Shown: positions 1 to 34,135 of the stretch, piece after piece
Layout of the letters: the number at the start of each line of letters is the position of its first letter
Numbering within the stretch: position 1 is the stretch's first letter
Source: Mytilus edulis
Lineage: Eukaryota
DNA: 64,000 bases
Direction of reading: 5' to 3'
NCBI RefSeq assembly: GCF_963676685.1
Contig: NC_092347.1
Location: forward strand, 73,408,001-73,472,000
The notes under the pieces: model-generated
What the model saw: the letters and a program-made list of their open reading frames with translations, nothing else
The model's database searches: none
Told to the model about the DNA's origin: nothing
Program-made: the position numbers and the translations under genes

Positions 1-12
1 TTTATGGCGTTC

Positions 13-21
13 TTCTACGAA
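13..21. promoter_or_regulatory. Candidate STAT (GAS) site TTCTACGAA upstream of the cytokine-like gene
   Basis: Exact TTC-N3-GAA match about 230 nt upstream of the putative TSS; motif match only. Confidence 0.4.
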
Positions 22-163
22 AGTTTTGAAATTGTCTATGCTGCATTCCAGGGATTTTTGTGGGGTATAAAATACATCACGTATCTTAATAAATGTATCC
101 TTAACAATCTAAGTGTCCTTGTGAAAACGGATTTGTTCAAGTGGGTATACTGTAAATATATTT

Positions 164-173
164 GGGGAAACCT
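164..173 (+). promoter_or_regulatory. Candidate NF-kB site GGGGAAACCT
   Basis: Resembles the kB consensus and lies about 50 nt upstream of the TATA box. A weaker GGGATTTTTG is at 51..60. Confidence 0.4.
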
Positions 174-221
174 ATTTCCATGCGTGTTGGATTGTAGTTG
201 TATAACATCCGACTAAGAGGG

Positions 222-255: not shown

Positions 256-278
256 AAACGTCCTCAGTTTAAAGTAAA

Positions 279-302
279 ATGACAAAAGCTACAATGATTT
301 CA
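279..302 (+). CDS. Exon 1 of putative IL-6-family-like helical cytokine (MTKATMIS)
   Basis: ATG at 279 (second ATG at 294), 8 codons, perfect GTAAGT donor at 303, phase 0, in frame with exon 2. Confidence 0.65.
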
Positions 303-363
303 GTAAGTATGTCGCATTAGCATATCACATCATCTTATTACATTACAGAGGTACCAGTTTTAT

Positions 364-459
364 CAATCTTATTAAAATATTGATCTCTGATTTCGTTATA
401 CGGCATATGAGCTCATCTGTAGTTTAACGAAATCAGAGATCAATATTTTAATTAGATTG
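364..459. mobile_element. 96-bp hairpin MITE with 9-bp target-site duplication (Mutator-like) in intron 1
   Basis: Near-perfect ~35-bp inverted arms (caatct...agattg) flanked by CAGTTTTAT at 355..363 and 460..468. Confidence 0.65.
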
Positions 460-1176
460 CAGTTTTATATGAATCACTACTGTTTAATTTATGTATATTC
501 TAATTTGTACTGTTTAATTTATGTAAATTCTGATTAGAACCAAAGCTTGCAGATGGTTAACTTTCTTAATTGTTTGCGAATTTTGTCATGTTTATTTAGA
601 ATCATAAAAGCTAAAGAATTTTACTAATGTCTATCATCAAGTCTTCATTTTCAAGAACGATTATAATTTATTGAAATAAATTTTATTCAATTCATACAAA
701 ATTACACATACAGTAAAATCAGAGATTTTCTAAATGATTTTTTATATTCGTAAATTGTGAACGGATAGGTTTCGAAATAAAAAAAAGTATTTTGACTTTT
801 AACAGCATTATTTTGTGCAAATCTTTTATTGAACCATGAATAGAAATGTTATTGTTTTATCCGTTGTTCAATAATCCAATAATAATAAATGCATGCAGTT
901 TCTGAATTTAAAGTCTTCACCTTTCAAAATTCTGACTTAAAAATTGTAATACTGATACACGTACGTCACCAAACGTGCATGAAATGTATACAAATTTCAG
1001 TTCTAAGATTTATGGTGGTAGTTAAAATGACACTTAGGTTATATTTCTAATGATACCAAATATTGAATCTACGCAGAAAATAATCCTGGTAATTTTATAA
1101 ATCAAGTACTACTAGACATAAGTAAAGAATATTTTATGACTTATTTACGCCATAATTGAATGTAAAAAATGCTGGT

Positions 1177-1257
1177 TGGTGACCTTCTGCTGTTGTCTGT
1201 TCTATGGTCGGGTCGTTGTCTTTTTGATACATTCCCCATTTTCATTTTCAATTTTAT
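1177..1257 (+). mobile_element. Short 3'-end fragment of the Penelope-like element family seen at 13447 and 34021
   Basis: ggtgaccttctgctgttgtctg...cattccccatt...caatttta matches the 3' terminus of the longer copies. Confidence 0.6.
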
Positions 1258-1289
1258 GATTATCATTTGTGTGCATTCTATTCATATAT

Positions 1290-1567
1290 ACATTTATCGC
1301 TATTTTGTGCATTTTTCTTTTGATCTTTTCTAGTGATAATTTTCATATCATGCTTCTCGCTTGAGATGGAAAAATTATCGCTAGAAACTAAGGAGGCCAC
1401 GTGGCGTTGCTAACGAAATTGACATGAAATTGACAACGTCGTCATAGGTAAAATAGCGATAAAAAGATTATCATTGGTCATCTCAACTCGATTGCTTTTC
1501 TCACTTTCGCTGTACCAGCTCAAGCGAGAAAATCAATCTCGTTGAGATGATCAACGATAATCTATAA
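1290..1567. mobile_element. Non-autonomous element ending in a long imperfect hairpin (1465..1563)
   Basis: Inverted arms agattatcattggtcatctcaac / gttgagatgatcaacgataatct, plus a second inverted pair tttatcgctatttt / aaaatagcgataaa. Confidence 0.5.
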
Positions 1568-1646
1568 GTACAGCTATGTGAATGGCACTCGAGATCTGAT
1601 ATTTATATAATCAGGAAATATTATCGTCGTATATTGTCGATTTCAG

Positions 1647-1850
1647 AGAATCTCGTTGATAGTTTTATTTTTGTTATGTGCAACACTACTTTGTGATGCA
1701 AAGCCTGGCAATAGAGGTAAACCCCAATGGATAAAAAATGATTCCAGTATTGTTTCAATTTCCTGTCCAGATAACGTACAAAGACTGAGGATACTAGACA
1801 TAATACATTCTGGATTGACACCAACAGCTAAAACTTTGAAGGAGAAAACA
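1647..1850 (+). CDS. Exon 2 of putative IL-6-family-like cytokine (signal peptide and helix A)
   Basis: tttcag acceptor ends at 1646. 68 codons RISLIVLFLLCATLLCDA|KPGNRG...TLKEKT with a hydrophobic signal core and CDA cleavage site. GTAAGT donor at 1851, phase 0. Confidence 0.8.
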
Positions 1851-2440
1851 GTAAGTCAATGTTTATTAACCTTTGTGTGAATTTTATGTTTAACATTACT
1901 GAAAACTAAACATTAAAAAGTAAATTATGTGGTGTAAAAGCGAGATTGTATGCATCTTTGCGGGATCGCTGATCGGCTGATTCAAAAATAAAATACAAAG
2001 TACTGTGAGTACTATAACACAATTCTGAAAAACTTATATAACAATTATCAGTACGTCCATGTCAACTGTTAAATTACAGAAGAAAATGACGTAGATGGAG
2101 ATATTTCAACAAAGACTTAACAAAAATATGCTACTGAAAACGATAAGGTTCTCACTGTTTATTGGCTATTTGAATTTTACTGATTTCGTTTGATGTTTGC
2201 ATCCAGGAAATGTTCTACAACAAACAAAAAACTGCCATTCTTTTTATTATTACGTAGATAAACTCGTTAATTTATTGTTTTTTAGAATGCAACTTTTCTA
2301 TCCAAAATTATTTTTTGTGTTTTTTATGATAATGAATATCTTAGATTTGATGCATGCGTATAATGAATTTATTCAACTATAATTTAAGGGCAAAGGGCAA
2401 TGCAACTGACTTTTATAATCAAATAAAAATATAATTTCAG

Positions 2441-2548
2441 ACATCAAGGATCAATCTACCTTGGATGATGCCATATTTAGATAAAGCTCCTGTATTGGTA
2501 GGATTTCCTTCTTTAGATACTGAGGGAAACTGCTCTATCTGCAATAAG
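2441..2548 (+). CDS. Exon 3 of putative IL-6-family-like cytokine (AB loop)
   Basis: tttcag acceptor ends at 2440. 36 codons TSRINLPWMMPYLDKAPVLVGFPSLDTEGNCSICNK, GTATGA donor at 2549, phase 0. Not in the ORF track. Confidence 0.75.
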
Positions 2549-3165
2549 GTATGACGGTTGTGAGAGATATTACATCTTGTCAAATTTTCTGTAAAACTTA
2601 GTACGGTATTATGCCACCACAACAGATAAATAATTTTTAGTAAATTTTCTGTGAAGGTAGTGTTGTAACTTGTAGAATACCACCACCTCACAAAACATAA
2701 AGTAGAATAAAAAAACTGCCGAACTCCAAGGACATTTTAAAACGGAAAGTCCCTGATCTAATGGGAAAATCAAAAGCTGAAACACATAAAACGCAAGGAA
2801 AAACAACTGTCTTGGTACAGCCATTTTCTTGTGTTGAAAATTTTAGATTAAACCTTTTTATAGCTAGCTTAATCTCTCACTTATATGACAGTCGCATGAT
2901 ATTCCATTATATTGACAACAAAATGTGAAATGTAAAATAACAAAAATACTGAAGGCATATAGACAATGTTTGGCCAAGATGTTACACGTTTTATTTAATC
3001 AAATTCTGTTTATTTCATGGTTGTTTCAATTAAACGAATAATTCCATAAGATGTAATTGGTATAATGTTTTTTTTTTACTTTCTCTCTAGTTATGTTGTA
3101 CTGAAATTTTCATGTATTACAAAATAAAAACTTATTTTTTATTTTTTATTGGATATATTTTGTAG

Positions 3166-3429
3166 ATCAACCCTTGCTTTAAAGCTGACTGTGAGTCCTT
3201 GGGAAACCTGATGATACTTATAAATAATCTCATGTCTTCAATGTATTCTAAAGATATAGCAAATATAACACGTGACTTCTATTTCATCAGAAGGCAAATG
3301 AAATGTGAACCCTTAAGGGTATTCAAGTATAAGGAAGAATGGCAACGAATTGATATAGAGTACAGAATCGCAAAAGATCTCGTTGAATTCGCAGATGCAC
3401 TGCAAAGCCGATATGCTAATATTTATTAA
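3166..3429 (+). CDS. Exon 4 (terminal) of putative IL-6-family-like cytokine (helices B, C, D)
   Basis: ttttgtag acceptor ends at 3165. INPCFKADCESLGNLMILINNL...EEWQRIDIEYRIAKDLVEFADALQSRYANIY*, in frame with ORF 3199..3429. AATAAA at 3705..3710. Confidence 0.8.
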   Translation: MNPCFKADCESLGNLMILINNLMSSMYSKDIANITRDFYFIRRQMKCEPLRVFKYKEEWQRIDIEYRIAKDLVEFADALQSRYANIY

Positions 3430-9233: not shown

Positions 9234-9309
9234 ACATACCATACAGTGAAATATAAAAACAATAAGAACACCCCATCCTATGGGTATATAAGTGTCTTTA
9301 AACATTAAT

Positions 9310-10245: not shown

Positions 10246-11696
10246 TATATGATTTGTCGCCAGTCGTAATATCTTGGGGTCACTCAAGTGAGCATGAACT
10301 GAGCACTTTGATTAAAACTACATTAAACTGATCTTGCATAATTTTCGATAAACTGCAATATTTCCACTTAAACTTTTGAAATATATTATCACTTAAAGGA
10401 TAACTTATTGAAGTTTAACATTATCTATGTTAGGTGTCGGCTACCTAATTGTAACATTATGCACCAAATCAAAGGACGAATTTGATACAAGTGTCATTCA
10501 TTCACATGATACTTTCTGCATTGTTTAAGTTGGATACCAAGTAATCATGTATTTTTAGAACCTGGAATTTCCCTTCATAAAATCAATTCACCAGGAATGT
10601 AACTGCCACAAAGGTACAGTTCTTCGTGGTTTATTTATAAATTAATCGTTTATACTTTTTAAACTATGCTTTTCTAAGTGAATGTTCTTTCTTCAATCAT
10701 ATCAGACCATGTATATTAATTTATATATATATGAGCATAGTCATACAGATAAGTGTAAAACGGCATAATTTCATATCGACAGGTAAAACATTGTGCATAC
10801 CTTTCCTGATTGTGAGTATTATTGTTTTATTTGCTTGTATTTGTGTTTTTTGATATTTGCAATAACATAGTTGGTTGTTTTTTATATCATTACAAAGAGA
10901 TTAAAGGTTCATTAGAATGACACAAAATAACAAAAAAAAACAACAAAAACATATTGAAGGTAACATAACGTTAGTAACATTGTATTAAAAACTAGCCTTT
11001 ACTTGACTGATTTCTTTGAAAGCTCTGAATAATTTAACAGACATGATAACAAATCCGCCATCCGCTCAAAACAACAAAAACATTTAAAAGATATAACATA
11101 CACGACAAGCACCGACAAGGTTCCTGACATTCGAAAGGCACATTATTGCGAAGTACTGATTTTTTTTCAGGGTTGATGTTTTTCTGAAATTGTTAAACAT
11201 TTCACTTTTATTATTCATCCCTTATTTTTATTAATTTTGTATTTGCATTGTATTATAGATCATATTTATTCGTCCAGTGTATGTTCATTTGTGTTACTAC
11301 GTCTGTTGATTGAGTTAACCCATTCAATTGATATTTTATAGTATGCCTGTTACACTATTGGTTCAAATAAGGGTTAATGTTTGGAACCATTGGCCCTTTA
11401 TAGCTTGCTGTTCGGTGTGAGCCAAGGATCAGTGTTCAAGACCTATAATGGTTTACTTTTATAAATTGTGACTTGGACGGAGAGCTGTCTCATTGACACT
11501 CATATCTCATTTTTTTTATATCTACTTACAAATGAGGCAGGCTAACGTATTTTATTTAGGGTCGCAGTTTTCGCTCTTTTTATCTCGATTAAGGTAGCTC
11601 AAGTGCCCTCCTCTAGATTTTCCATGATTTTGAAGTAGCAGATAACGAATGATCTGTCTATATCTTTAATGAATTGTGCAAATATTTAGAGAAGTA

Positions 11697-16268: not shown

Positions 16269-17350
16269 TACTAAACTTAGAGGAAAAACAATTCGGATAG
16301 TCCATAATCACATGGCAAAATCAAATAACAAAACGCATCAAAAACGAATGGACAAGAACTGTCATATTCCTGACCTGTTGCAGGCATTTTCAAATGTAGA
16401 AAATGGTGGATTAAACCTGGTTTTAAAGCGCTAACCCAAGTTAGAAATTATTTTTTTATGTTTTGTAATTTTTGCCCTTGAAATCTGTAAAATTTGATAG
16501 TATAGTGATGATAACACTTACAGAAAAACAAGTTTTTTCTTACTCAACGTAATTGTGTCTCCCTTAGAATAAAAGCAGAAAGAATCTTAAAAGAGCAATG
16601 TAGTTTTAAGCATTTCAATGTGAAAAATAAACTTCGTCAGAAAATAAGGTCCATAATTATTCTATCATGTCTATATTTATAATTGACACTGTTTTACTAA
16701 CAATTGATTTTATTGAAGACAATATCATACTTGTAAAAAGTGCAGTTACATTTTGAATTCAAGACCAGACAAATATCGCAACAACTTGCATAAACATTTT
16801 TTTATCCGATTAATGATAGACACCTAAGAGACACTCAAACTAAAATTTCGAAAACAAACAGACAAAACCATGGCCAAAAAAGATAAACGACCACAAGTTA
16901 AACCGCAAAGACCAAGAATGTACAACACAAACCCAACCACAAACCGAGACGATCTCATGTGCTCTTGAAGGTTAAACTGGTCTGATCCACATATGGCACC
17001 TGTCATGTTGCTCATGAAAATAAAAAAATGGAGAATCTTAATTCGGTATAGGTAAAAAAAAGAAGACGGGATTGTGTTAAAGACAATTGAAACATTTATG
17101 TTGTCATTTATGTTTAGAGATATTGTATATATATCTGATGTCAGTGGCTGTTCCCTTAAACTAACCAAGAGTCTTCTTATTTATGTTCATATTTCATTTT
17201 TAAGTACTTTACCTTATGTCTTTTTTTCTTAATATTTGTATGTATGTATCTTTCTAATTGTCAAACGATAAGATATTTTAGAACTTCATTTTATGATTAA
17301 TATATTTCAGTTGAAGGAATTTCTTAATCTATCAGAATGTGATTCTGTGA

Positions 17351-18669
17351 ATGGATAACCATAGTTCACCTTCGAAAAGTTATGCATATTTTCAAAATGA
17401 ACAGGATTCTCTTAATAGTAATTGTCATACTTTGTCTATGCCATTCAATGGAGGCACCATCTTTACAACAATTTGTGGAGAAGGGACCTACATCGAAAAT
17501 AATTGTCCATATCCAGAACACAAAAAATGTAGTATGCTCCAAGGAGAACTTCCATCTAAAGATGGAAAAGTTAAGACATCGAAAAGAAGAATCACGAAAT
17601 CAATTCGCGTACACAATGATTCAAAATCAAGCAGTCAATTTGAAGAGTTTGTTCATGATGTTTTCAGCAATAGAACCACCAACAAGACTTCTGCTGGGAA
17701 TCCACATACTAGTATTCAGAAAGGCAACCATAAACAAGTTTTGTCATGCACAAATTTAATACAAGAGACATCGGAACACAAATGTTCGTTTCATTACGAA
17801 ACACCATTCGTAAACAAAGAAAGAAATCACAAAAAACAACATTGTCAAAATAAACCTAACGAAGGGTTAATGGACTATTCGCTTTATTCAAATTTCACAG
17901 TTGTTGATATAGAGCTTTATCATTCTGATACAGAATATTTTATGCAAATGGATAAGTTTAAACCCTCCAACAAAATTCCTGCTAGTAACTCACATACTAG
18001 TACCAAAAAAGTCAGTAATGAACACGTGCTGTTAGGTGCGAAGTTATTTCAAGAGACATCGGACTCCAAATTTTCGTTCAATTGCGAAAAATTATTTGTA
18101 AGCAGTGAAAAAAATAACAGTATACAAAATTGTCATAGTAAACAAATAGAAGGATTGAGTGACTCTGCGCTTTCCTCAAATTTTTCTGTGGTTGATGTAG
18201 AGCTTTATCAGTCTGATAGAGCATATTTTATGCAATTGGATAAGTTTAAACCCTCCAACAAAATTCCTGCTAGTAGTTCAAATACTAGTACCCAAAGAGT
18301 CAGTAATGAACACGTGTTGTCAGGTGCGAAGTTAATTCAAGAGACATCGGACTCCGGGATTCCATTTGTAAACAAGGAAAGATATAACAATTTACAGAAT
18401 TGTCATAATAAACAAATAGAAGGATTAAGCGACTATTCGCTTTCTTCAAATTTCACAGTTGTTGATGTAGAGCCTTATCAGACTGATAGAGCATATTTTA
18501 TGCAATTGGATAAGTTGTGTATCCAGCAGGGTAAACCCTGGACTCGAGAATATGTATCTGAGGTACAAAACAACGTACTGATGCAAAATACCGCACCTGA
18601 CCTGAAACATAATTGCCTCCTGACTGAGGATAACAAACATGAAGTATCACAGGAAAAAGGAGTAGTAGA
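17351..18669 (+). CDS. Coding exon 1 of TRIF/TRAM (TICAM)-like cytoplasmic TIR protein, repeat-containing N-terminus
   Basis: tttcag acceptor ends at 17310; in-frame TGA immediately before ATG 17351; 439 codons + 2 nt; GTAAGT donor at 18670 (phase 2). Confidence 0.8.
17669..18514 (+). repeat. Three in-frame coding tandem repeats (288, 288, 270 nt)
   Basis: Units end in YFMQ(M/L)DK; gataag at 17951, 18239 and 18509. Confidence 0.85.
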
Positions 18670-19304
18670 GTAAGTTTGAAAAGGATGGCTTCACGGCTAT
18701 TAGATATTTAAAATTATAAAAGTAAAACGGAATTGACAACACCATGTCGAGGGAGGGGGAGAGGTAAAAAAAAATGACAAACAATATTACGAGTAAGCGA
18801 AGACAAAAACGTGAAAAATACATGAACAACTACAGCTAACTGTAAAGCATGAAATCGAAAAGGAACTGACAATATCATTGAAAAACGACGAAAAGACAAT
18901 AAAAGTCTACACAAATTACATAGAAAATTAAATCCTGATCAATTGCACCAATAACAATAATTTATCTCAGGGACTTTACAAGGTAGAACGGTTAGCCGAC
19001 CCTACTACACGTGTGGCACCCGTCGACCTGTAAGTGATTATAACAAGGTCATTGTTCATTCTCCTTCGGTTATTTCACAACGGAGATGTTTATAATGTAC
19101 TGTTTCAAACATATCCCAAATTCGGATGCTCTTTAATTTTAATATGAAAACCTTTTCTTATATATTTTGGTTTTTTTTTATCCTACGCTCACATTTATTT
19201 TCGTTTTGCATCTGACCTCAACGCTTGTCGTGTCAATATGAATGCTATTATACAAAATTCTCGTGAATCACAATGTATTCAGATTTAACAACGTTTCATT
19301 ACAG

Positions 19305-19450
19305 AATTTTAAGTGAAACTAGTAGAAGAACTTTAAATGGACAAAACTTATCCTGTGGTGGTATAATAAAATCTACACGTCCCACAGATATATCCCCCCA
19401 TATTTGGACTGAAAAAACACCATCAGAGGAAATTTCTACCAAGGAAAAGG
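19305..19450 (+). CDS. Coding exon 2 of TICAM-like TIR protein
   Basis: ttacag acceptor ends at 19304. Phase 2 entry gives ILSETSRR...TPSEEISTKEK; GTATGT donor at 19451 (phase 1). Confidence 0.75.
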
Positions 19451-21419
19451 GTATGTTATTACAGATAGAATATTTGTTAATAAATATATTTTAAAATAAA
19501 AATGGAATAACACAAAAAAAGTTTCATTGTCAGCCGTTCATTCTGCTCTTCAGACAGTAATGGAGCGTTATTATGCAGCAACATAGCATCTTCAGTAGCC
19601 AAGGGTAACGATACAGTTACATCCTCTCAACCCTTAGCGCATTAAGGGCAAATTTCAGATCTACGAATTGATGATTTCCAGTGGTTGCAGTTTTAACTGT
19701 CTATATCAAATTAAAAAGCGTCTTTAAAGTAATCAAGTGTGAATGTAGAAACAGTAGATTGTCACGTGTTGATTGTGCAACAAGTGTTTGCCGACGAAAC
19801 ATGTGATAATATTTAGTGACAATTTCAAAGTTCAAAAGTAACTTCTAGTAATTAAAAGTTCCAGAATATGTTTCTCGAGCAAACTTTAAAATGACAACGT
19901 TTAATTTTTGTTCCTGCTTCGCGAAATTTCTAAACACTGGACACAACAATTAAACACCTCAACATTGAGGAGAGTTCTTGTGCTGCCGTTGGTCAAGAAT
20001 GGTGTAGTCGGAATGGGAGTGACTTTTATCTACAGGCATATGACGCAGCATTGTTATCACAAATGCTGGTTTAATCTGGATGAGGAGAAGGGGATCTGTG
20101 TCCTTTTACTTTTTGACATCATAAAATAATCTTATATTACTAAATACCGGGTAATATACATACGTTATGGTTACAGGTTAGGAAAAATTTAACAGTCGGA
20201 AACCAGGTTGAAATAGAATTAGAGAAGGCGATAAATGTTTACTGTATTGTTTACTATAGTGACAAATTTTTAAAAAGTTAATAGAAACAAACAAAACTGC
20301 AATTTTCTTCTCAATTACGAGGTGTTTTATTTCAAAAACACCATTTGCATAAGTTTTCAATTTATCTAGTACATAGTTAAGCAGAACAATTAGATATCAA
20401 GTCGACGACATGGGTATCTTTCAAGTTGGATGACAAAAATGCATAACCTCCGATTTTTTTGAAAAAATTACCACGGACGGAAAAGATATCAATCTATTAG
20501 TTCAGTAATTTTCGTGTCTGCCCTTCCATTATGTGACTGAAGAAAAAAATCCAAAAAATAGGTAACAATTGTATCGAAAAGAGAAAATCGAGTGCATCTT
20601 TTTATGTTAGGGCGTGTTTGAGTTGAGTATTTTGTCTTGATATCGTTCAAAGTAAGATTATTTCATACATCGTCTCGCTTCAGATTCTATCATTTTTATA
20701 TATTAAAGCTACAGGTTGACTTTATAACACAAAAAAATAACAGTACTAAAAGATGAAATATATGGGTCAAGTGAAATACCCATCTTATGAGTCACAAAAA
20801 CAGGGAAGGTGTGTTCGAATAGCTATTTTTTTACTGAAAGTACTTGACGACAGTCTTACAAGTTGGATGATGAAAATGCATATCTTCGAAAAATTCTAAT
20901 TTTTTGTGTGTGATAACTAGGGTTTATAGTCTTCAACCACTAAAAAAATCTAGTCTGCCCTTCCACGAAATATTTAATTAGATTTTTTTTAAATGTTTAT
21001 GATTTTTCGAAAATTCCACCGAACAACCGATCAGACAATAGTTTTAAGTTGAATCAATGCAGACAATATCATTAACTGATGCTCATTAGCTAGTTGATAC
21101 ATTTGTCTTTTAAAATATAACTGACATATAAGGATCGTATTGGTGCAATGTGGATAAATTTATCGGTTTCCAAGAGCAAAATTGGTAGCGCGTCATCGCT
21201 ACAATGGCTTCCATTTTTACGATTGTGAAAATGAACTGGCGTAATGGGGAGATAATTTTGACGAAGTAGGATCCTGACTGTTAAGAATAGGATAGAGTTG
21301 TTCTTCTTTTATCAATTTCAAACGAGTTCAATTGATTCAGAAATATCAGCTTTTTGAGAAAAAGATATTATTACATGTATTTAGGGATCGATATGCAGTT
21401 ATTTTTTGCTGATATTTTT

Positions 21420-21463
21420 TTTCCGATCGCAAGTTTTTTACGGTCGAATATCGCTATGACTTT

Positions 21464-21501
<38 letters not shown>

Positions 21502-21810
21502 ATGGATCTCTATGAAACTGTACTAAAAGGTTTCATGCCACCAAAGGAAGTTATGGGATTGTTTTGGGCTTCTTTTGTTTTTGGCATTAGGAGCAAAAAA
21601 CAATACTTTTCAAATACTTCGTATAAATTGCTCAAATTTTGGCCAATTTCAACGGACTTGTATTCAAAGTCTTGAATTTTAGGCTATTTTAAATATACTG
21701 AATTTAACCATGTATTTGGATTACTGATATTGGACCAGGAAAGGTAAATGTCCAACTTTAAAATTTTTAAGTTCTTATAGCACACTCATACTGTGTCAGA
21801 ATTTTTTCCA
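21420..21810 (+). mobile_element. Degenerate copy of the Helentron-like element at 57461, with (GTC)n microsatellite
   Basis: Shares the (gtc)n tract, the atctctatgaaa motif and the ctgtgtcagaa 3' segment. Confidence 0.55.
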
Positions 21811-24031
21811 ACGCACGTAGAAATATCATTCAATATTTACATGTAAAAATAGACAAATGCCGTGGTAAATTATCAAGTTTGTTAGGCATGCGTAATTGTT
21901 TTGCGGATCATAAAGTCATTTCATAATGATCAAACAGGCACATTATTCATAAAACATTGTTGCGCATGGTGGAAAGTATAATGCGGTATTTTTAAGGATT
22001 TACCTTGTCATTTTTTTAAACACCGTAGTAATCATACGATACATGATGCCGTCCGTACAACTTGTGGAGTTATAATCTTAGGCGTTATTTTTCAAATATT
22101 GCGTTTTAAGATCTTTCTGTTAATGAGATCATAGATCGTCGATCTCATATTTCTTATCAATTAAGATACCTCAAAGGCATGTACAGGAAATTTTTTTGAC
22201 CGACAAATATTCAGTTTTTCCCTTTCCCTTCACAATATTTTTAAAATGCTATGCTGTTGTAATATCAGGGTTAAAAGCTGAACTTTTTTTCGGATTAATA
22301 TTCTGATATTCAAAATGACTTTCTAATCAATGATTGAAAGGGTTTTTTTTAAAGTCAAATATTTTATGGCACGATTACGATAGCTGAGATGCATTATGTT
22401 CTTTCTTGTTACCCGTACAATATTAAAACTTGGATTTAGGTATGTTTAGGTAGATTAAATATTGTTTATAGTATTATTATTTTTTTGTTATATCTAGTCG
22501 TAGTAAACGTGATACTTGTTAATAGTACTATAAGTAATATACCCCAGTATTCTATAATACAAAATTCGGTGTTGTTTCAACTTTCAGTTCACAAAACAAA
22601 ACAATATGATAATTTAATGGAACTTAGTATGTATGTTTCTCATTACAAATGTAAGTAAATTGTTCAGGATTCATGCCTAATAAGGGTTTTGGACAAGATT
22701 TGATTGTTCGCTAAAAATTTAAACATGAAAGTACGACAGTCCCTTATGGTATCTAGTTTATAAATTGTATCCGAAGTTTTGATCCATCAACAAACATGAC
22801 CGCCATAGCTAAAAATAGAACATAGGGGTCAAATGCAGTTTTCAAAAACTAAAGCTTTTAGAAAAAAATATGACATGGGGTAAAATTGTTCAATTGGTCA
22901 AGATCTATCAAGACTCATTAATATATTTTGAAAAGCAAAAATAATCATTGATGAAAGATTTAAGCAAAAATAAATAGCAGGTGAGCGATTCAGGCTATTG
23001 ATAGACTCTTGTTTTTTTTACATTTTTTTATAAATTTTTCATACATTTACTGTTTGCAAAAGTAAGAATTTTTCCAACGATTTTCTTATCCCAGGAATAG
23101 ATAACTTTAGCCGTATTTGGCACCACGTTTTAGAAATTTGTGTCACCAATGATCTTCAACTTTGTTCTAGTAGGCTTTCTTTACTATTTTGATCCGAGCG
23201 TCACTTGTGAGTCTTATGTAGACCAAACGCACGTATGGTGTATTAAATTAACCATCCTGGTACCTTTGATAACTATTAGCATGTCGAAATTTCCTATTGT
23301 AATGTTATTTGTGTAGTAATTTGTCCTAAATGTTCTTGTATTTATTTGTACTGTCGTCCTGTCATGTAATGTTGTCATTGTAATGTTATATTTAACATTG
23401 CCATAAAAGCGAGAGGTTTGACTAGCCGCAAAAACAGGTTCAACCCAACATTCGTTTCTTAACATTTCCTGTACCAAGAAAATGGCCATTGTTATATTAT
23501 AGTTCGTTTCTGTGTGTGTTACATTTAAGTGTTGTGTTTATGTTGTGTCGTAGTTCTCCTCTTATATTTACTGTGTTTCCCTCAGTTTTAGTGAGTAACC
23601 CGGATTTGTTTTTTTCTCAATCAATTTATGAATTTCGGACAGCGATATACTACTGTTGCCTTTATTTAGTTCATATGCCTTTTTACAATAATATAGTGAC
23701 ATTGACATTTATTCCTTCTCTTTTATCTAAATGTAAATCGTGGAATGTAATTCACTATACAGAAACTTGGTTCGGGAGTTTATTTCATCTTTTAAAGGTT
23801 CCGTATTGTTCTATTCTTAATTTTTCAAAACAAATCCAGATCAAATTATTACGAAATTTACTTAACATTTTGTTTTTTTATGTTGCTTTTTTCTTATGCT
23901 TCTTTATATTTGGTTTCCCTGTTGAAGACTAGTTTTAACCAGCAATTTAACTTATGTCACTTAGTTTCTTTGGTGACTGAATTAAATAGAAAAGTAAAGA
24001 ATTGAAAATTAATATATCCTTTTTTTTTTAG

Positions 24032-24690
24032 ATACGTTTAATGTTAGTGGTAAGCCGTTTAAAGACTTGGAAAGATACGTCATTGAAAATTACCAAAGAG
24101 TTCCAGATGTCATTAAGCATAAATACTTCGATGCAACAGTAGTTTACCATGAGGACGATAGGTATGAAGCTGAAAAATTCCGAAATCATATAACAACACA
24201 AAATACACGCCAACCTCTAAGCATAGCTATGTACGATGGACCTGATTTAGAGCATATGTCACGATCAAAATTGGAACTACTTGAAATGATGTGTGAATTT
24301 TCAACATTTATAATAATATTTTTTACTGAAAATGTTATGCTGAGAGCAAATTTCTGGAGATTAGATAAACCATTCAGCCCATCAACACATGATTCTGAAG
24401 ATGAATGGTTATATATGTTTAACTCCATTTGCGTTAAATATTGTAGAACAGGAAAAGTAATACCAGTTAAAAACAGAACGCGTTTAAGGCTTCCACTCAG
24501 TTTAATAGCACTTAGGTCATTTGACTATTCACAACAAGATGATCAGTGCATTGCGAAATTGTACAAAATTATTTTTGAAAAAAGAGATCAACGAATAAAA
24601 AGAGAGATCGTTTTATTAAAGAAACAATTCGATTATCTAATGAAAAATCGACATTTGTGTGTATCATCATCAAAATTTGGGTCTATTTAG
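24032..24690 (+). CDS. Terminal exon of TICAM-like protein encoding the TIR domain
   Basis: Poly-T ag acceptor ends at 24031; phase 1 entry in frame with ORF 24067. YFDATVVYHEDDRYEAEKF, STFIIIFFTEN, KVIPV and RLPLSLIAL align by eye to TRAM FVILHAEDDTDEALRV, SAWTILLLTEN, SVIPM and RTPFALQTI. Confidence 0.8.
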
Positions 24691-27600
24691 ACCAAGCTAC
24701 TGTAGTTGATTATTTTAGATCACATCATAAGCTTCATGCTTTTAACTCATACATCAGGGAAATCAAATAATTTAACCAAATAATAAAAGTTTTAAATAAT
24801 TGTTCTCTATGCACATTGAAACCCACTCTTTTGTGAACTTTCAATTGCATATGCAGGGATTGGTATATGCATAATGTCTTTACCATGAACAATGAGTGAC
24901 TTACAAGATGATAATAGAATTATAGACTAAACAAACTGTATATCTTCTTTTATTTTATTGGAACGACGTAGTTTAATTTCTACTACACAATGTACTAATT
25001 CCGTTTGTATTTTATGCTTTTATTTCTAGCATCATGACAAAATTGTGGCCATTCTGAACGTCCTCTAATAGTATTAGAACAGGTTATTGATTTCACATTT
25101 TCTGGAGGAATTTTGTCAAATTTCAAACTATTGCGCGAGTCGTGCATTAGGTTCAGAGACCGTGACTCCCTTTGTTTGCAACTATTAGAATACATCTCAA
25201 TAATATTAGTTACGTAGTGTGCTAGTGACCTAATACGATATTTATAGGGTCAGTAAATTCCACATGGTGTGAGAGCAAAACTCGAATCCCCATATGGACT
25301 TTACTGACCCATATACATAGTATGCTGTATAACCAACTTATTCTACCGACTATCTTAACATGTGGTATTTAGAATAGTGGCCTTTCAAAGTACTTAGTAT
25401 TCAGAACCTACTTACATTTGTCTGTACAAAAAGAAATGCCATCAATAACAATTTGTTATCTCAAAATGTGTTTTATTGATTTATTTTAATCGTTCATCAT
25501 CAATTTTCTTGTTCTGCTGAAACCTTTCAGATTTTTTTCCAAGCACCATGTTGTTTTTATAAAAAGACATAGCATCACAACTAACCGTGTATTGAAATAA
25601 TCTCCCATCTTTTTTTTGTTTTAAAGGGAAGTATCTCCTTACTAACCCAATATTGTAACTTACTCTATATTTTTAGGACACCCTATTAAATATATGCAGT
25701 CACCTAGTGTAGTCCTTTAAAAATTATATCCCCATAAATCTATAGGAGGTAAGATAACAATGAATATATTTATATCAAAATTTTACTCTTAATCTGTGGT
25801 CTCTCGCTTTACTTTGTTAGATGCTTGTATTCTACTAGGATAAACATTGCATTTTTCTGTATATTTGTAAAATAGTGTGTTCTTATAGTACAGTGTATAG
25901 TTTTTCTCAGCTTCAAAAGAAAAAATATATACGGATAAAACAAAATTCACAGAATATTTTGAAATATCCTACATTTTTAAAAGATAATAAAAAATCATTG
26001 ACAAATATTACATCGAGTCATATCGAATTAATGCGTATGCAAACGACCGCAATTGTTTAAATTTCATTATGGTATTATGGAGGTACAAGAAGCGGTTTCT
26101 TTCACAATTGTATAAAATATCGAGGTTGTCAAAAGTTTCTACAGTTTTATTTCTCTTCAGCATTTTATATGATCAATTGTATTATACAGACAGTCATTTT
26201 AAGAAAGCCAAAAAATTCATTGGAATTTGATATCAAAAACTTTGGGATTTCAATATCTGATGTTAAATATTAGAAATTCATTATGGGAAATTAAATATCT
26301 TTATTCAGATTTCGTCATTCAAAATTGTGAATTCAATAAATTCATTAGACACGGTGTTGAGTATAATATCCACTGCATCTAGTCAAAAAACAGTTGAAGC
26401 ACTAAAAGGTCAATAATGCTAATATACTAGTATATATCTGATTAAGCAGAGCTCTACTTATTATGCATTACATTAAATAATTGTCACAAATGAAGTTCAA
26501 AATGGATAATGTAAAATATGAACTTTCACATGTGAATTCTCCAAAAGATGCAAGAACTGGATAAAGAGCACTTGAATTTTGGAAGGGATTTTAAATCATT
26601 TGGTAAAGGACGACATCAAATGTTAAATGTAGGATAAAACAAACTTAATTCATATACCCCCTCTTAAATTACTTTGGGAAAAATTGATTGACCAATAAGT
26701 ATATGTATAAAATCGATGTCAATTAAACAAAACTTAGAGGCAAATTTTACCCCCACCCTCAAACTATTTGAATTGAGATTTTTATCCTTATTGATGTTTT
26801 TATGTCGTCCATTCAATTCGTCAGTGGATTAGATTACCGTCCATTTTCCTTTGGATGGATTTTCCTTCCAAACAGCAGATTTTGAGTTCGGATGGTTATT
26901 ATCTTTTCTTCTTGATGTAGGTAAACAGAAAAGTACTTTCGTGTTGATTTGAAAGTCTGTTCCATTGTTTGTATATATTTTTTTTTTAATATAAAACTTA
27001 ATATAAACTGCTATTATAATTGTTTAATAGATTTGATTTTTTATTGATTTACTGTAATTTTAATTGCTTGGTAGTATTTTTGATTGCTTCTGTGTTTATT
27101 TTCTTGCTTTATGTCTTCTGTATACACATCGACTCTTATTTAAAATCGTATATGCAAACGTAACTGGTTACTCACACAATTAAAGTAAATATTTCATATT
27201 TTATAATATATGGCAGTAAATATCTTGTTAGGAACGATTTGTCAGCTTTTGAATGATGTATTTCTTTTATTCGTTTCAGACATAATTTGTCCCGCGCATC
27301 ATTTTCTAAAGTAATACAGGGTATTAAAAAAAACATTATACTTATTTATCATATGTTTAGTAGTAAATACAGTAGTTTTGCATATGTGATAAATAGCCTG
27401 CTGTTTAATCCATATCGCGCAACTTTGATGCGCACCCTTTATCGCATACCCTTTATCACACCCCTACCCTTTATCGCATACCCTTTATCACACCCCTACC
27501 TTTTTTTTTTCTTTTTCTTTTACATAAAGTCAGTTTTGGTTTTTTTTTTGCTTTAAGAAAAATTTTCCTCAAAATAGGTACATTTTTTGAATGACGTCAT

Positions 27601-29387: not shown

Positions 29388-31946
29388 TTACAGTATGTCT
29401 GCAATGAGAGCTCTTCTTAAGTTTTCCCAGTCATTTTCATTCTCCGCTTCACTCCAATTTATTAAAATTACATCATTTAAAATATGTTCAAATTCTGTTG
29501 GAAAATTTTCTACTGGCACCTGCCTTGTAACTATTATAATTTTCTGTAAATTGCTTGCATATTTTTCATACTTCGCTCTTTCAATTTCAAAACGCCCCCA
29601 GTGTTTGTCTGAAAAATCTTTTGTTATCACAAAAATAATGTTCCGGCTTTGCTGGATTGAGTCACAAATGGCATCTACATAAGCATCGCCAACGGAGATA
29701 TCACGATCTTCAAGGCACATTTTCATTTTCCAGGAATTTTCAATTTTCGGCATTAGGAGATTTTTCACCCAGTAAAGACTTTGATTTGAATACGATAAAT
29801 AAATATCATACACAAATTTCTTTTTAAGTTCTGTTTCAACAGCTTTCCGAAATTTTCGATAAAACCAATACGTTATTTGCCATTTGAAATTTATAATAAG
29901 AGCTAAAGGGACGGTAATGGTGATAAACGAAACAAGCAATCCAATGCCGACTCGAAGCCATATTTCATTGTGACAGATACTGAAATAGTCATGAAACTTT
30001 TGATAAACTTTGATAGTTGTAGTAATAGAACCATTACTCAACATACATTTATATTGTTTGTTTGGTTCATCAAATTCAATATTAGTTTCAAATAACCATC
30101 GAATGAAATCTTTTGTTTCACAGGTACACTTAAATATGTTTCTTTTCAGAAATAGCTTGAAAGTCCCATTCTTTTTCTGTTGTTTGTCAAGCCAGTTCCT
30201 CATAGTTGCGTTTATCGAATCTAAAATATTTCCCGAAAAATCAAGAAAATTTAATTTCTCTAGCGGCATTAAAGCCGTTGGTAACTCATCAAATAAATTA
30301 CCCTGCATTATAAGTTTTCTTAATTTTTGGTTATAAAAAAAGGTATCGTATCTAAGTTGCCATAACTGGTTACCAGAAATGTCTAATTCTTCTACTTCTG
30401 GAATGAAACTAAAATAGTGTCGGGTATGTTGAACAGTCTGCCATATCCCAGTAAAACCAAGAATCACGGTTGTCGAATTTGCAAATAACGACATTGAAGT
30501 GTTCCAAGACGGAATTCCAGAAAAATCTATATACTTGATGTTATTTTCACCTTTTAATTCAATTTCAGGAAAATTTCTTATATTGACGTATGCCAAATCT
30601 AAATATGTCAGATTTGAAGCATTCAAGAATACTATTTTGTTCCTAAGTTGTTGATTTGCAAGGTAGTATCTGTGTCGTATCTGTCTCAAGTTTGGGGGAA
30701 GCGGAAGGTGTACAGTCTGCACAGGAGATTCCCTTGCTGGTGTAACAGAATTTCGTTTTCCTAGACACAGAGGCTTGTCACTTTCTGTATTTTTCCAAAA
30801 AATTGAATTAAAGTTCGATAACTTATTGTCATGAAGAATTTTAATGTTTTGTTCAACATTTCTGTACGAAAGAGGATTATAAGACATGTCAAACGATATC
30901 AGGTTGGTAAGCTTTCTACTAATATCCCATAACTCTGTCAATTTGAATCCGTTGATCAGGGAAAACCTATTACCTGACAATTCTATGTTTTGTATGCATT
31001 CTGGGTATCGGTTCCACAACAAGGACTTAGGTTCAAAATCAGCAATCCCATTCTCTGTCAAAACTAACGTATTGAAACAAATTTTCTGCAAATGCTGCAT
31101 CATTTGTCTTGTTAGTATAACTGCAGATGGCGTTTCTATGGGACATTTGTACCCTGGATTAACTCTTGTGAACTGAATCCTGCGCATTTGCTTATTTTCA
31201 AATGGATACAATAATTTTAAGGCAGATTCCAATGTCATGTTTGAATGATGTATAACTAATGTTTTCAAATTTCGTAATGATCGGAAGGCGTCAGCTTCAA
31301 TACTGCGAATCATGTTACATTTCCTCAAATGTATTTCTTCCAAATTTTCTGGTAGCATTGAGAACGTGTTGTTCAATATCAATCTTAAATCACAGTTTTC
31401 AAAGACGATTTTAGTTATATTTTGTAGTTTTTCGAACCCACAATTGTCAAAACCAGGATCACCAATCAAATCCAAAGATAACTCCTTTAAATTGGAAAGG
31501 TTTTCAAACAAAGGATATTGTACTTTTGATGTATATTCTTTTTTCATATTATGTCTTATATCTAGCATTTCAAGTCTTTTTAGAGGACGAAAAACGTCGA
31601 CTTCGTAAGACACAGAAAAATCCAGATTGTTGTTGGTTAAAAAAAGACCATGAAGATGTTCCAAGCCATCAAATGCATTTGTTGGAAGAAATGAAATGTT
31701 ATTGTTATCAAGATGAAGAGTTTTCAGATTACGATATTTCCCCAACACATCACCATCTATTCGATGTATTACATTGAACTTCAAATCCAAAACAACAATA
31801 CTGTCTGGTAAATCATTCGGAACATTTCTAAGTTCTTTATAAGAGCAATTGGCAGTGAAATCATGTATTTCGCAAATATGAGCATGACATTTGTAGCGTT
31901 CTAAGCAAAAGACGAATACCATTATCGTAATTTGAAATAAATCCAT
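29388..31946 (-). CDS. Toll-like receptor, single cysteine cluster type, intronless, 852 aa
   Basis: Signal peptide; LRRNT (CEIHDFTANCSYKELRNVP); many LxxLxLxxN repeats; LRRCT (NIFKCTCETKDFIRWL...YKC); TM (IWLRVGIGLLVSFITITVPLALII); TIR boxes YDIYLSYS, CLEDRDISVG, WGRFEI, WENLRRAL. Confidence 0.97.
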   Translation of the reverse strand: MDLFQITIMVFVFCLERYKCHAHICEIHDFTANCSYKELRNVPNDLPDSIVVLDLKFNVIHRIDGDVLGKYRNLKTLHLDNNNISFLPTNAFDGLEHLHGLFLTNNNLDFSVSYEVDVFRPLKRLEMLDIRHNMKKEYTSKVQYPLFENLSNLKELSLDLIGDPGFDNCGFEKLQNITKIVFENCDLRLILNNTFSMLPENLEEIHLRKCNMIRSIEADAFRSLRNLKTLVIHHSNMTLESALKLLYPFENKQMRRIQFTRVNPGYKCPIETPSAVILTRQMMQHLQKICFNTLVLTENGIADFEPKSLLWNRYPECIQNIELSGNRFSLINGFKLTELWDISRKLTNLISFDMSYNPLSYRNVEQNIKILHDNKLSNFNSIFWKNTESDKPLCLGKRNSVTPARESPVQTVHLPLPPNLRQIRHRYYLANQQLRNKIVFLNASNLTYLDLAYVNIRNFPEIELKGENNIKYIDFSGIPSWNTSMSLFANSTTVILGFTGIWQTVQHTRHYFSFIPEVEELDISGNQLWQLRYDTFFYNQKLRKLIMQGNLFDELPTALMPLEKLNFLDFSGNILDSINATMRNWLDKQQKKNGTFKLFLKRNIFKCTCETKDFIRWLFETNIEFDEPNKQYKCMLSNGSITTTIKVYQKFHDYFSICHNEIWLRVGIGLLVSFITITVPLALIINFKWQITYWFYRKFRKAVETELKKKFVYDIYLSYSNQSLYWVKNLLMPKIENSWKMKMCLEDRDISVGDAYVDAICDSIQQSRNIIFVITKDFSDKHWGRFEIERAKYEKYASNLQKIIIVTRQVPVENFPTEFEHILNDVILINWSEAENENDWENLRRALIADIL

Positions 31947-32176
31947 TACTTTTCACGCGCTCGGACAATGCTATTTTAATTGAATTCAGGTCTCTCGAGA
32001 CTTACATTCTGACTAATATAAACCAAGAGCCGTAATAACTATACTTTTATAATAATAATGGTGTTGTAAGCTTTAACTTCTTTACTTATACGGGTATCTT
32101 TTGGCTTACGGAATAGAAATATGTCTACCCCCAGAGTTCAGAAAAACCAATAAAGAAATAAACGAAAAGGGTAAGC

Positions 32177-32185
32177 TTCCGGGAA
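32177..32185. promoter_or_regulatory. Candidate STAT (GAS) site TTCCGGGAA upstream of the TLR
   Basis: Optimal GAS consensus 231 nt upstream of the TLR ATG. Confidence 0.5.
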
Positions 32186-34135
32186 GTATGTTCGAGACAA
32201 CACACAATTATATAGCTTTCATGAATGTTGACTTTGATCATTTGTAATCTTCTTTGTGGATAGATAAACTTTTAAATTGTTATTTCCATATTAAATGAAC
32301 ATTGTTTCGTATCCCGATAATCAGCTATGAGGAAAGTTATTTTACTAAGCATGAAACGTTTATTAGATGGCTTAAGTATATCTCAAAGATGGGGATTTAT
32401 TTCAAATTTACCCATAAAATCCGCTTTCCATCTTCGCATGTATATTATTTTCCTTCCGATCATATACATGAATATCTTGATAAGAAACTATTGGTAATAA
32501 TGATACAGCATTTTCGAGTTATAAATCTAGACTTTGATATATTAAACTTTTTTCAATAAACTATAAACTCATCCATTCTACCTCAGACACCAGGTCTTTT
32601 AAATTTAAAAAAAGTAACAAATTTCTATTTGGTTGCAATATCTCGTAGGAACTGAAAATCGGACTTAATAGGTACTAGTATAGAATATTTGGCTTCCAAT
32701 TGAATATGAACTTCTAGTATAATAGTTGTGTTTGCAATTAAAAACACTTTATCAGATGAATTCAGGAAATTCAATTGAAAATACTGATATAGATAAGGTA
32801 TAGCGGTTTCACCAGACTAAAGTTAACTGTGGTATGATTGCAATGAGACAACTGTCCACGGCTTTCAAGTGACGTATACATGTTAGTGACTATAATGGGC
32901 CATCGTACAGCCTTTTGAATTGTTTCACGTTCTATCGAGCTGGAAACTTTTGCGAATGTGGTTGTTAATGTCATCCTACTCTGGTCTCTGTTGGATAGTT
33001 CTCACAATGACAGTCGTACCAAAATCTGCTTATTTCTATATTGCTAAAGTTTGTTAATATTCTTTACTCTAAATAAGTCCCACAGATTAAAATAATCTCA
33101 ACTATCCACGTCAAGTTGTCCTCGGGACATATCTGGGGGGATTTTTTTCTTCTTCTTTCTGTGATCCTGATTCCATATACCATGATTTTATGAATGTTTT
33201 AGTTTAACATATTTTTGGGCTACAGAAATGGCATACATCGCATATGTATATAATCATGTAGTTTTTTAAAAACATCATGACCTTATATTCCTGCAAGGGT
33301 TACAAAATAATTTTTCATACCCTTTTCTTAAACTTTTAACAGCATTTAATTTACCAATCAACAGAAGCAATAACTCCGTGAACAATAGTCTCATTCATTA
33401 ATAAATATCTGCAAAACAGAGAAGTTTCAGGAAATCTTTGAAATTTGGAAGATGCAATAAGTTGGAGACATTTGTCCAGCTAAAGATGATTTCATAGATG
33501 TTGCCCCTAAGCCTAAGGACGAGACGTTCTTTGACATACCCCCTGGTTCATCAACAGTCTGTTCAGACACTGGTGAGTGTCATTCGAAAGATATACGTTC
33601 TCAACTGTACATCTTTGATTTGTTTAAGACACTTGTCCAGCTATACTTGCTATGATAGATGTTGTTTGATGGGAAACAGTAAAATAACAAAAAATATTGA
33701 ACTCCGAGGAAAATTCTAAATAGAAAGTCCCAAAGCAAATGGCGAAATCAAGAGCTCAAACACATCAAACGATCGGATAACAACTGTCATACTCACGAAT
33801 TGGTACAGGCATTTTCTTACTTAGAAAATACTGGATCAAACCTGGTTTCATATCTAGCTAAATCTCTCAATTGTATGACAGTCGTATATAATTCCATGAT
33901 ATTGACAACAATGTGTGAACATGTAAAAATGTCAAAAATAGGGGAAAACAGTCAACATTGTGTTGAAATTTAATCACTATAAAAACAAACAAATATGTCA
34001 ACAAATGAGAGAATACTGTTTCTGTATTGTTTTAAGTTACAATGTATGACTAAAATCAGCAAAGACCCATCGAAACAACATCTGCTACAAAAATTTTACA
34101 ATACTTTTAGATATTTGGATGAAATGTTGGCTCTC

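Follow-up and report, generated by a model that had tools for sequence, protein, structure and literature searches.

A predicted helical cytokine, a TICAM-like TIR adaptor and a Toll-like receptor side by side in Mytilus edulis, likely neighbours through duplication history

Genes of the locus and their relatives

The window (the whole stretch of 64,000 nucleotides of M. edulis analysed here) holds a cytokine gene (279-3429, + strand), a TIR adaptor gene (17351-24690, + strand) and a single-exon Toll-like receptor (TLR) gene (29388-31946, - strand), in this order. These three consecutive genes had been proposed in an initial annotation, and gene models, splicing and Pfam hits bear out their positions and strands. 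The names given there (cytokine-like, TICAM-like TIR adaptor and TLR) also hold, with better support now for the cytokine and the adaptor. As had been noted, no further gene was recognised between the three; the remaining frames of at least 80 amino acids resemble repeat or retroelement pieces or noise, and 37% of positions 1-33000 matches other genomic loci compared. The phosphotyrosine adaptor described further downstream is indeed present as a + strand gene whose SH2 domain lies just past the window end, and which we take to be SHB/SHF-like. The genes and exons are the following:

279-3429, + strand: gene for a predicted long-chain class I helical cytokine, four exons, 199 aa (splicing, database identity, predicted fold)
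17311-18669, + strand: adaptor exon with the ATG at 17351, N-terminal region (gene model and contigs)
19305-19450, + strand: internal coding exon of the adaptor, frame kept (GT..AG joints in 4/4 runs)
24032-24690, + strand: last coding exon of the adaptor, with a divergent TICAM-like TIR that ends the protein and no RHIM tail (contigs, TIR family comparison)
29388-31946, - strand: single-exon TLR of 852 aa, with LRRs, a C-terminal cysteine cluster, a transmembrane helix and a TIR (BB loop RDISVG) (ORF and Pfam)
60187-63961, + strand: SH2 adaptor exons with tyrosine-rich repeats (SH2 exons just past the window end)

The four exons of the cytokine gene (279-302, 1647-1850, 2441-2548 and 3166-3429) are separated by introns that all have GT..AG ends, spliced contigs were found in two of the four runs, and the model is identical to database protein P0005 at 199/199 residues. 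All three introns are in phase 0, and the paralogues show the same exon borders when read by eye. Phase-0 introns between helix-coding exons are a hallmark of long-chain class I helical cytokines. Absent from the initial annotation is the fact that this gene is the last of six tandem copies, in an array that extends over about 146 kb upstream of the window; with those at C12:30.71 Mb and C4:99.86 Mb the family amounts to eight, and all eight proteins are labelled 'uncharacterized' in databases. The N-terminus bears a hydrophobic stretch (residues 10-24), modelled as a helix in the AlphaFold structure, and is predicted to act as a secretory signal peptide, with a mature chain of about 175 aa.

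An AlphaFold model built without templates on a 22-row alignment (in which 5 fragment rows have 4 residues out of place) reached a pLDDT of 71.8. An earlier model from 8 rows had been discarded (pLDDT 41.6, uninformative fold searches). In the structure comparison (VIA), the best 14 rows are all long-chain class I cytokines (IL-23p19, CLCF1, LIF, IL-11, IL-12p35 and IL-6; Z 10.3-12.6, rmsd 3.0-6.6, 112-146 residues aligned), with Z values just below the caution of Z 13 for helical bundles, yet helical cytokines fill 35 of the first 36 rows. The best Foldseek rows are G-CSF and IL-11 (probability 0.96-1.00, E-values >0.001), and the Atlas feature scores to the IL-6, IL-12a, IL-11 and G-CSF clusters are 0.91-0.93, the nearest cluster being a molluscan one in which 11% of the 114 members carry Pfam IL6. 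Sequence-profile searches against PDB and Pfam gave no cytokine match and no Pfam IL6/IL12 hit. On the model, the protein is predicted to adopt the long-chain class I cytokine fold, a four-helix bundle; because the best structural matches are tied, no one-to-one vertebrate orthologue can be assigned to it.

The adaptor model is identical to database protein P0036 (707 aa), and all four contig sets, which come from 4 studies, show GT..AG joints at both of its coding junctions. Its 3' UTR reaches at least 25137, and one contig has 71 more letters on the upstream side. The N-terminus consists of about three repeats of 96 aa (288 bp), of which no second genomic copy was found, and no homologue of the full-length adaptor turned up among longer proteins. 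About 20 residues follow the TIR before the C-terminus. P0036 contains no RHIM-like, TRAF6-type (PxExx[FWYDE]) or LxIS motif and has no Pfam hit for the TRIF N-terminal domain; as the sole query, it has no PDB hit, and its BB-loop region holds no PG, the xxPG motif of TRIF-type TIRs being taken from PMC7075850.

The TIR family to which the adaptor belongs spans bivalves. When its profile was compared with solved structures, no TIR other than TRAM/TICAM2 (E 3e-9 to 4e-9) was hit up to E 10, a match that full-length alignment weakens to E 0.002, and the Atlas neighbours include the TICAM2 and TICAM1 clusters (scores <0.9). By these comparisons, the family TIR appears nearer to TICAM than to MyD88, MAL, SARM or TLR TIRs. 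A RHIM-like motif follows the TIR in 14 of 30 representative relatives and in the full-length Mytilus paralogue P0062, as counted with a pattern derived from the same sequences; Pfam RHIM gave E 0.06, below cut-off, in one of the three pieces scanned, and the family profile matched the RIPK3 RHIM fibril chain with E 0.079. In a tree made of bivalve-type sequences and one TLR outgroup, the window adaptor falls in a long-branch clade with the copies at C4:64.155 and 64.253 Mb (support 98/96), a grouping that may be an artefact. Judged by its sequence, the window adaptor appears to be a fast-evolving, RHIM-less derivative of its family.

The TLR frame is uninterrupted, with LRR and TIR Pfam hits above cut-off, and the protein exhibits the features of its class: a signal peptide, an LRR ectodomain with a cysteine cap, one transmembrane helix (about residues 664-688) and a TIR. 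An exact database look-up of the protein with two start codons found no match, and its coding region has only traces of contig cover in the four runs, which were picked by the adaptor and report presence only. The genome contains at least 150 single-exon TLR-type loci (150/150 scored candidates matched, of 586 candidates), in 54 clusters, 29 of them singletons. The window TLR is a singleton on its chromosome arm; about 10 Mb separate it from the closest TLR scored, and its nearest relatives (59%) are on another chromosome, C1.

It could be argued that one or two of these genes are decaying duplicates, that is, a silent or dispensable TLR or an adaptor under relaxed selection, which would make the cluster in part a relic. 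The very long branch of the adaptor TIR (1.69 changes per column), for which there is no Pfam TIR hit, and the frameshift in the adjoining upstream cytokine copy are consistent with such decay, as is the dispensability of 30% of mussel TLRs. However, none of the three frames is interrupted, splicing of the adaptor is seen in every one of the four runs, its M. galloprovincialis counterpart is 97% identical, and the cytokine has orthologues in M. trossulus (91%) and M. coruscus (75%), so that this explanation is considered very improbable.

NF-kB and STAT motifs

The motifs reported in the initial annotation, namely a kB site at 10564, a GAS at 32177, and a kB-like site and a GAS before the cytokine gene, are found at those positions:

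13-21: palindromic TTCTACGAA, a loose match to GAS, 266 bases before the cytokine ATG
164-174, + strand: putative kB-like site GGGGAAACCT in the cytokine promoter, with a TATA box (222-229) about 50 bases downstream
10564-10573: putative consensus kB site GGAATTTCCC in single-copy DNA, 6.7 kb upstream of the first coding exon of the adaptor
32177-32185: putative perfect GAS TTCCGGGAA in single-copy DNA, 239 bases before the TLR ATG

Over the whole window, motif counts are at chance, and some positions are promoter-proximal. Three strict kB sites were observed against 3.2 expected, one of them in a 16-copy repeat (2744) and another inside the TLR coding sequence, and perfect GAS motifs gave 4 strand-hits (2 sites) against 1.65 +/- 2.0 expected. 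In the cytokine promoter, GGGGAAACCT is kept in the 86%-identical duplicate, while TTCTACGAA is not kept in the aligned promoter of the nearest duplicate. Sites resembling kB just upstream of a TATA box also occur in the candidate promoters of two older cytokine paralogues, and because these lie 110-125 kb from the adaptor, such promoter sites look like a trait of the cytokine family. A candidate splice donor (about 10783) lies near the kB site at 10564.

Adjacency and its explanations

Under a naive uniform model, the chance that any of the three TICAM-like places falls within 10 kb of a TLR is 0.6-2%, and the chance of a cytokine place within 15-30 kb of any of them is 0.05-0.07%. Given these percentages, only a large look-elsewhere factor would keep the gene triple from being rare, and because the adjacency is rarer than the naive model predicts, the genes may share inducible regulation. 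Conservation of the linkage across bivalve assemblies had been put forward as a check, and this stands for two of the genes and one sister species: in M. galloprovincialis, the cytokine and the adaptor adjoin by accession order, as their numbers are consecutive (VDI15251 and VDI15252/3) and the contig given for each has one and the same length. Runs X1 and X14 each contain spliced contigs of both genes (presence only). No partner genes were found near other copies at any of the four places examined, which were the C12 cytokine (90 kb), the C4:99.86 cytokine (80 kb), the C4:64.07-64.28 adaptors (200/210 kb) and the C2:38.0 adaptor (60 kb).

The rarity of the adjacency and its occurrence in M. 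galloprovincialis would fit a neighbourhood of inflammatory genes kept together by shared NF-kB/STAT-responsive enhancers, with no specific mutual signalling. The consensus kB site at 10564, in single-copy DNA, could be one such enhancer, and the perfect GAS at -239 of the TLR is of a kind present within 1 kb upstream in only 2 of the 20 TLR loci with an upstream kilobase (the window TLR and L107). Nevertheless, the motif counts do not exceed chance, the site at 10564 cannot be assigned to a located adaptor start site, and the transcript support consists of assembled contigs, which show presence only. Shared regulation is regarded as an unlikely explanation, albeit the foremost of the alternatives.

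The linked circuit inferred in the initial annotation, from TLR to adaptor, NF-kB, cytokine, JAK-STAT and back to the TLR, has gained no support from the analysis, nor has it been refuted. In such a circuit, the TLR would recruit the adaptor, which would drive (or, being RHIM-less, dampen) the NF-kB induction of the cytokine, with JAK-STAT feedback on the TLR GAS. All three component types are the correct ones, and the motifs are located where the circuit requires them. A proline in the BB loop is used for MyD88-type signalling in mammals, and the window TLR lacks it; its absence was dropped as a mark of TICAM coupling, since 9 of 9 close TLR relatives also lack the residue and proline-less loops are the rule in this clade. 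Moreover, the chance-level motif counts and the absence of such neighbours around the other cytokine and adaptor copies examined argue against a circuit, as does the lack of RHIM-like, TRAF6-type and LxIS motifs in the adaptor, whereas amphioxus TICAM is described as activating NF-kB via its RHIM in the portion of PMC6043800 available. A dedicated circuit is therefore held to be improbable.

The three immune genes are real, and it is likely that they are neighbours through duplication history, and not as one wired circuit. The explanation given a somewhat better than even chance is that the end of an array of genes for predicted IL-6/IL-12-type secreted proteins, a RHIM-less TICAM-like duplicate and a solitary TLR were juxtaposed by separate duplications, each probably being induced via ordinary NF-kB or STAT pathways. 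In its favour, mussel TLR positions are only partly conserved between species and 30% of mussel TLRs show presence-absence variation, according to the available text of Saco et al. 2023 (PMC10279657). The cytokine would be secreted after Rel/NF-kB activation, as suggested by the kB-like site that closely precedes its TATA box, and may signal via a gp130/Domeless-type receptor to JAK-STAT. The TLR may be STAT-inducible through its promoter GAS, and the adaptor, with only a divergent TIR, would more probably bridge to or compete with the full-length TIR+RHIM paralogue (C4:64.09-64.11 Mb) than activate NF-kB alone. Observations that count against separate duplications are the rare adjacency, the three best motifs in plausible promoter positions or single-copy DNA, the M. 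galloprovincialis arrangement, the possible long-branch artefact, the Foldseek E-values and the absence of a profile hit to a vertebrate cytokine.

The cytokine and the adaptor, both unnamed in databases, outrank the three-gene linkage in value, and the linkage would gain importance only if it were conserved or co-regulated. The eight-copy family with a predicted IL-6/IL-12 fold would provide direct candidates for the ligand of mussel JAK-STAT, which, together with its receptor, is described as undiscovered in the available part of PMC3308963. A bivalve-wide, TRAM-nearest TIR family with a RHIM-like motif would challenge the chordate-only distribution of TRIF-type adaptors given in the available parts of two reviews. 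A far bolder proposal, to which little credence is given, is that bivalves own a true TICAM/TRIF-lineage adaptor (TIR+RHIM) and IL-6/IL-12-type cytokines, and that the Mytilus locus is one co-regulated feedback unit. In that case, TLR signalling independent of MyD88 and signalling by long-chain helical cytokines would both be older than the protostome-deuterostome split, and the locus would join a TLR inducible by STAT, a TICAM decoy that lacks the RHIM and a cytokine inducible by NF-kB.

Comparison with known systems

Among the papers listed in a literature search, none deals with an IL-6-type family of mussels, with a TIR+RHIM adaptor of bivalves or with this cluster, although the families may have been described before in Xin 2021, Gerdol 2017 and Tassia 2017. 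A related group is that of the bivalve ecTIR-DC (evolutionarily conserved TIR-domain-containing) proteins; the adaptor family may already be one of the numbered groups of Gerdol 2017, reportedly the paper that defined them. In the available text of PMC6321704, these are cytosolic TIR proteins of invertebrates, for which a role as adaptors or regulators is hypothesised. With TICAM1/TRIF, TICAM2/TRAM and amphioxus bbtTICAM, the bivalve family appears to share a TRAM-like TIR profile and, in part of its members, a RHIM-like motif, a likeness drawn from profile and pattern comparisons. The window copy differs by lacking the RHIM-like motif, the TRIF N-terminal domain, LxIS and the BB-loop PG, and by its unique repetitive N-terminus.

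The TLR resembles the Mytilus single-exon, single-cysteine-cluster TLRs, as described in the available text of Saco et al. 2023 (PMC10279657), in being an intronless LRR-TM-TIR protein of about 850 aa from a very large family; it differs in being solitary, with its closest relatives on another chromosome.

In comparison with IL-6, IL-11, G-CSF, LIF, OSM, CLCF1, IL-12p35 and IL-23p19, the modelled mussel cytokine shows a signal-peptide-like N-terminus, long AB and CD loops and a four-helix bundle, but only 7-16% identity and eight copies in one genome. Among molluscs, the oyster interleukin-12 p35 homolog, reportedly the subject of Xin et al. 2021 (PMID 34051203), would likewise be a helical-cytokine-like protein, judged by the title of that paper. 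The already reported CgIFNLP is a further molluscan protein of this kind, described as class II-like in the available text of PMC9756803, whereas the mussel cytokine is modelled as class I.

The three genes and the cytokine

The gene types and positions originally assigned to the cytokine, the adaptor and the TLR were borne out by gene models, by the splicing of the first two genes and by the domains of the third:

279-3429, + strand: cytokine gene (P0005), exons 279-302, 1647-1850, 2441-2548 and 3166-3429, three phase-0 GT..AG introns, 199 aa
17351-24690, + strand: TICAM-like TIR adaptor gene (P0036)
29388-31946, - strand: TLR gene

P0005 and P0036 are identical to the cytokine and adaptor gene models, and both are annotated as 'uncharacterized protein' of Mytilus edulis. 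The cytokine has a hydrophobic N-terminus, and in contigs from two of four runs its exons 2 and 4 are separated by 106 letters, the size of exon 3. Its orthologues are 98% identical in M. galloprovincialis, 91% in M. trossulus and 75% in M. coruscus.

The window covers C4:73,408,001-73,472,000 of a 1.37-Gb genome, and its cytokine gene closes a tandem array of six copies that spans ~146 kb (C4:73.265-73.411 Mb). The nearest upstream copy (C4:73,393,478-73,395,146) is a recent duplicate, ~80% identical, with a frameshifted last exon and with exon 3 not found, while the older four are 37-43% identical to the window gene. Outside the array, copies are located at C12:30.71 Mb and at C4:99.86 Mb, the latter being a distant minus-strand paralogue near the chromosome end (C4:99,864,839-99,868,530; 28% in the last exon). 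P0003, annotated as an isoform of the window gene, starts 35 kb further upstream (C4:73,373,039), in a different first exon located where the 5' part of an LTR retroelement lies, and skips the frameshifted copy.

Sequence profile searches of the cytokine against PDB and Pfam returned no named family. Its nearest neighbour in the ESM Atlas is a molluscan cluster, 11% of which carries Pfam IL6 (score 0.93, 210/256 features), followed by clusters of IL-12 alpha, IL-6, IL-11 and G-CSF. AlphaFold2, run without templates, gave a pLDDT of 41.6 on 8 rows, and of 71.8 (pTM 0.67) when given 22 rows, some of them exon fragments of paralogues, with three of the five 22-row models near 70 and two near 42. 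The modelled helices comprise residues 49-79, 113-134, 137-156 and 174-196; the AB and CD loops are long. When this model was compared with 48,161 solved chains, the best 14 matches were long-chain class I cytokines only, headed by IL-23p19 (Z 12.6, rmsd 3.2, 125 aligned) and including CLCF1 and LIF (both 12.0), IL-11 (11.9), OSM (11.8), and IL-12p35 and IL-6 (both 11.7); interferons, leptin and others came after them. Foldseek ranked G-CSF and IL-11 first, with probabilities of 0.96-1.00, yet with E > 0.001. Based on the structural, Foldseek and Atlas results, a predicted long-chain class I fold is well supported, while these data do not single out a vertebrate orthologue.

A TICAM-like adaptor family

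The two adaptor joints (18669>19305 and 19449/50>24031/2) are both GT..AG and appear in all four contig sets, from four studies; the spliced frame is intact and encodes 707 aa. The N-terminal 490 residues contain about three 96-aa repeats, and no second genomic copy of this region was found. On visual inspection, a motif in the 288-bp coding repeat (17756-18516) looks like the strand and helix with which the adaptor's own TIR begins, and one contig is short of one unit, representing either an allele or an assembly collapse. Contigs at similar depth run 2.7 kb beyond the stop (25137-27373), towards the TLR 3' end, which suggests that the adaptor, convergent with the TLR, has a long 3' UTR.

A Pfam TIR scan of the C-terminal domain alone gave no match. 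Among 1.84 billion proteins, 30 are related to this domain (E up to 0.001), most of them with weak TIR_2 hits of their own, and the named sources of the 20 clusters examined are Mytilus, Crassostrea virginica, Argopecten, Ruditapes, Mactra, Potamilus and Solemya. Against all PDB chains, a 19-member family profile matched significantly only TRAM/TICAM2 (E 3e-9), with no further TIR at E up to 10. A RHIM-like motif lies C-terminal to the TIR in 14 of 30 representatives and in P0062, a full-length Mytilus paralogue, although the pattern was derived from these same sequences and several of the hits are fragments that could not accommodate it. Pfam RHIM was reached in one of three scanned pieces (E 0.06, under the cut-off), and the full-length family profile gave E 0.079 against the RHIM chain of RIPK3.

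In the tree, the window adaptor clusters on long branches with copies at C4:64.155 and 64.253 Mb (support 98/96), and RHIM-like, TRAF6-type and LxIS motifs, which were sought in P0036, were not found. On these grounds, it is read as a derivative copy of the family. P0062 (C4:64,085,770-64,109,814; 918 aa) holds a TIR, then a histidine-rich stretch and the RHIM-like motif, along with three TRAF6-type motifs, and is the strongest candidate for the mussel equivalent of TRIF. At C4:64,232,635-64,253,820, a TICAM-like TIR exon is preceded at a distance of 14-20 kb by Roc and COR exons in the same orientation, an arrangement that may encode a ROCO-TIR fusion. At C2:38,025,921-38,030,451, a TICAM-like TIR is followed by a trypsin-like peptidase exon, and P0015 from M. 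trossulus combines both in a single protein, a TIR-protease fusion.

Promoter motifs and the TLR

A kB-like site lies 115 bases 5' of the cytokine ATG, a short distance upstream of a TATA box. In candidate promoters of other copies, whose first exons are predictions, comparable sites occur at -102/-89 and -129 in two older paralogues and at about -255 in a third; no candidate promoter was found for two copies. The loose kB pattern is present in 2.3% of 80-base windows. A perfect kB motif at 2744-2753 belongs to a dispersed repeat, for which the compared loci hold at least 16 matches, and repeats thus spread kB sites in the mussel genome.

The TLR, 852 aa long, is encoded in one uninterrupted frame and combines LRRs and a C-terminal cysteine cluster with a transmembrane helix and a TIR. 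A genome TIR search gave 586 candidates (150/150 scored matched; 54 clusters, 29 singletons). The nearest relatives of the TLR are on C1 (59%), and the BB-loop proline is absent from it and from all nine close relatives. It has a perfect GAS at -239; among the 19 of 20 other TLR loci with an upstream kilobase, eight have a loose GAS, about as many as expected by chance, and one has a perfect GAS.

Adjacency, regulation and known systems

The initial annotation read the locus as a circuit from TLR through adaptor, NF-kB, cytokine and JAK-STAT back to TLR. Three observations speak for more than plain adjacency. Under a uniform model, the odds of a TICAM-like gene next to a TLR are 0.6-2%, and next to a cytokine gene 0.05-0.07%; M. 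galloprovincialis has consecutive accessions for cytokine and adaptor, on a contig of equal length; and the kB site at 10564 lies in single-copy DNA. However, these odds are a post hoc figure for a single combination out of the many that immune families can form in a genome where such families are very large, and the shared order is expected because the sister species is 97-98% identical. In addition, window-wide motif counts show no excess over chance, partner genes are absent from all four other cytokine/adaptor places over the 60-200 kb inspected, and PMC10279657 describes the positions of mussel TLRs as labile. The interpretation is supported in part, in its cytokine, TICAM-like and TLR labels. 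A neighbourhood sharing an enhancer is conceivable, if rather unlikely, and a dedicated three-gene circuit is improbable; that the cluster is a relic of partly decayed duplicates seems very improbable. We lean towards separate duplication histories, in which the genes would have come together independently, each under ordinary inducible regulation. Beyond the SH2 adaptor, a secretin/adhesion-type GPCR follows on the minus strand (C4:73,487,193-73,494,982).

The value of the locus lies in two unnamed families, expanded IL-6/IL-12-fold cytokines and bivalve-wide TICAM-like TIR(+RHIM) adaptors, neither of which was found described in mussels in a literature search. An oyster protein is already named in print as an 'interleukin-12 p35 homolog', so cytokines of class I-like type have a precedent in molluscs. 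Regarding the adaptors, two reviews (PMC6043800, PMC9334734) state that known TRIF homologues are confined to chordates, and PMC7075850 limits its TRIF group to gnathostomes; Philipp 2012 (PMC3308963) gives one weak TRAM match in M. edulis and mentions reports of cnidarian TRIF/TRAM. According to PMC6043800, the TICAM of amphioxus uses its RHIM to activate NF-kB, and P0036 has none, which makes the step from adaptor to NF-kB the weakest of the circuit. The window adaptor would more likely compete or act as a bridge in the manner of TRAM.
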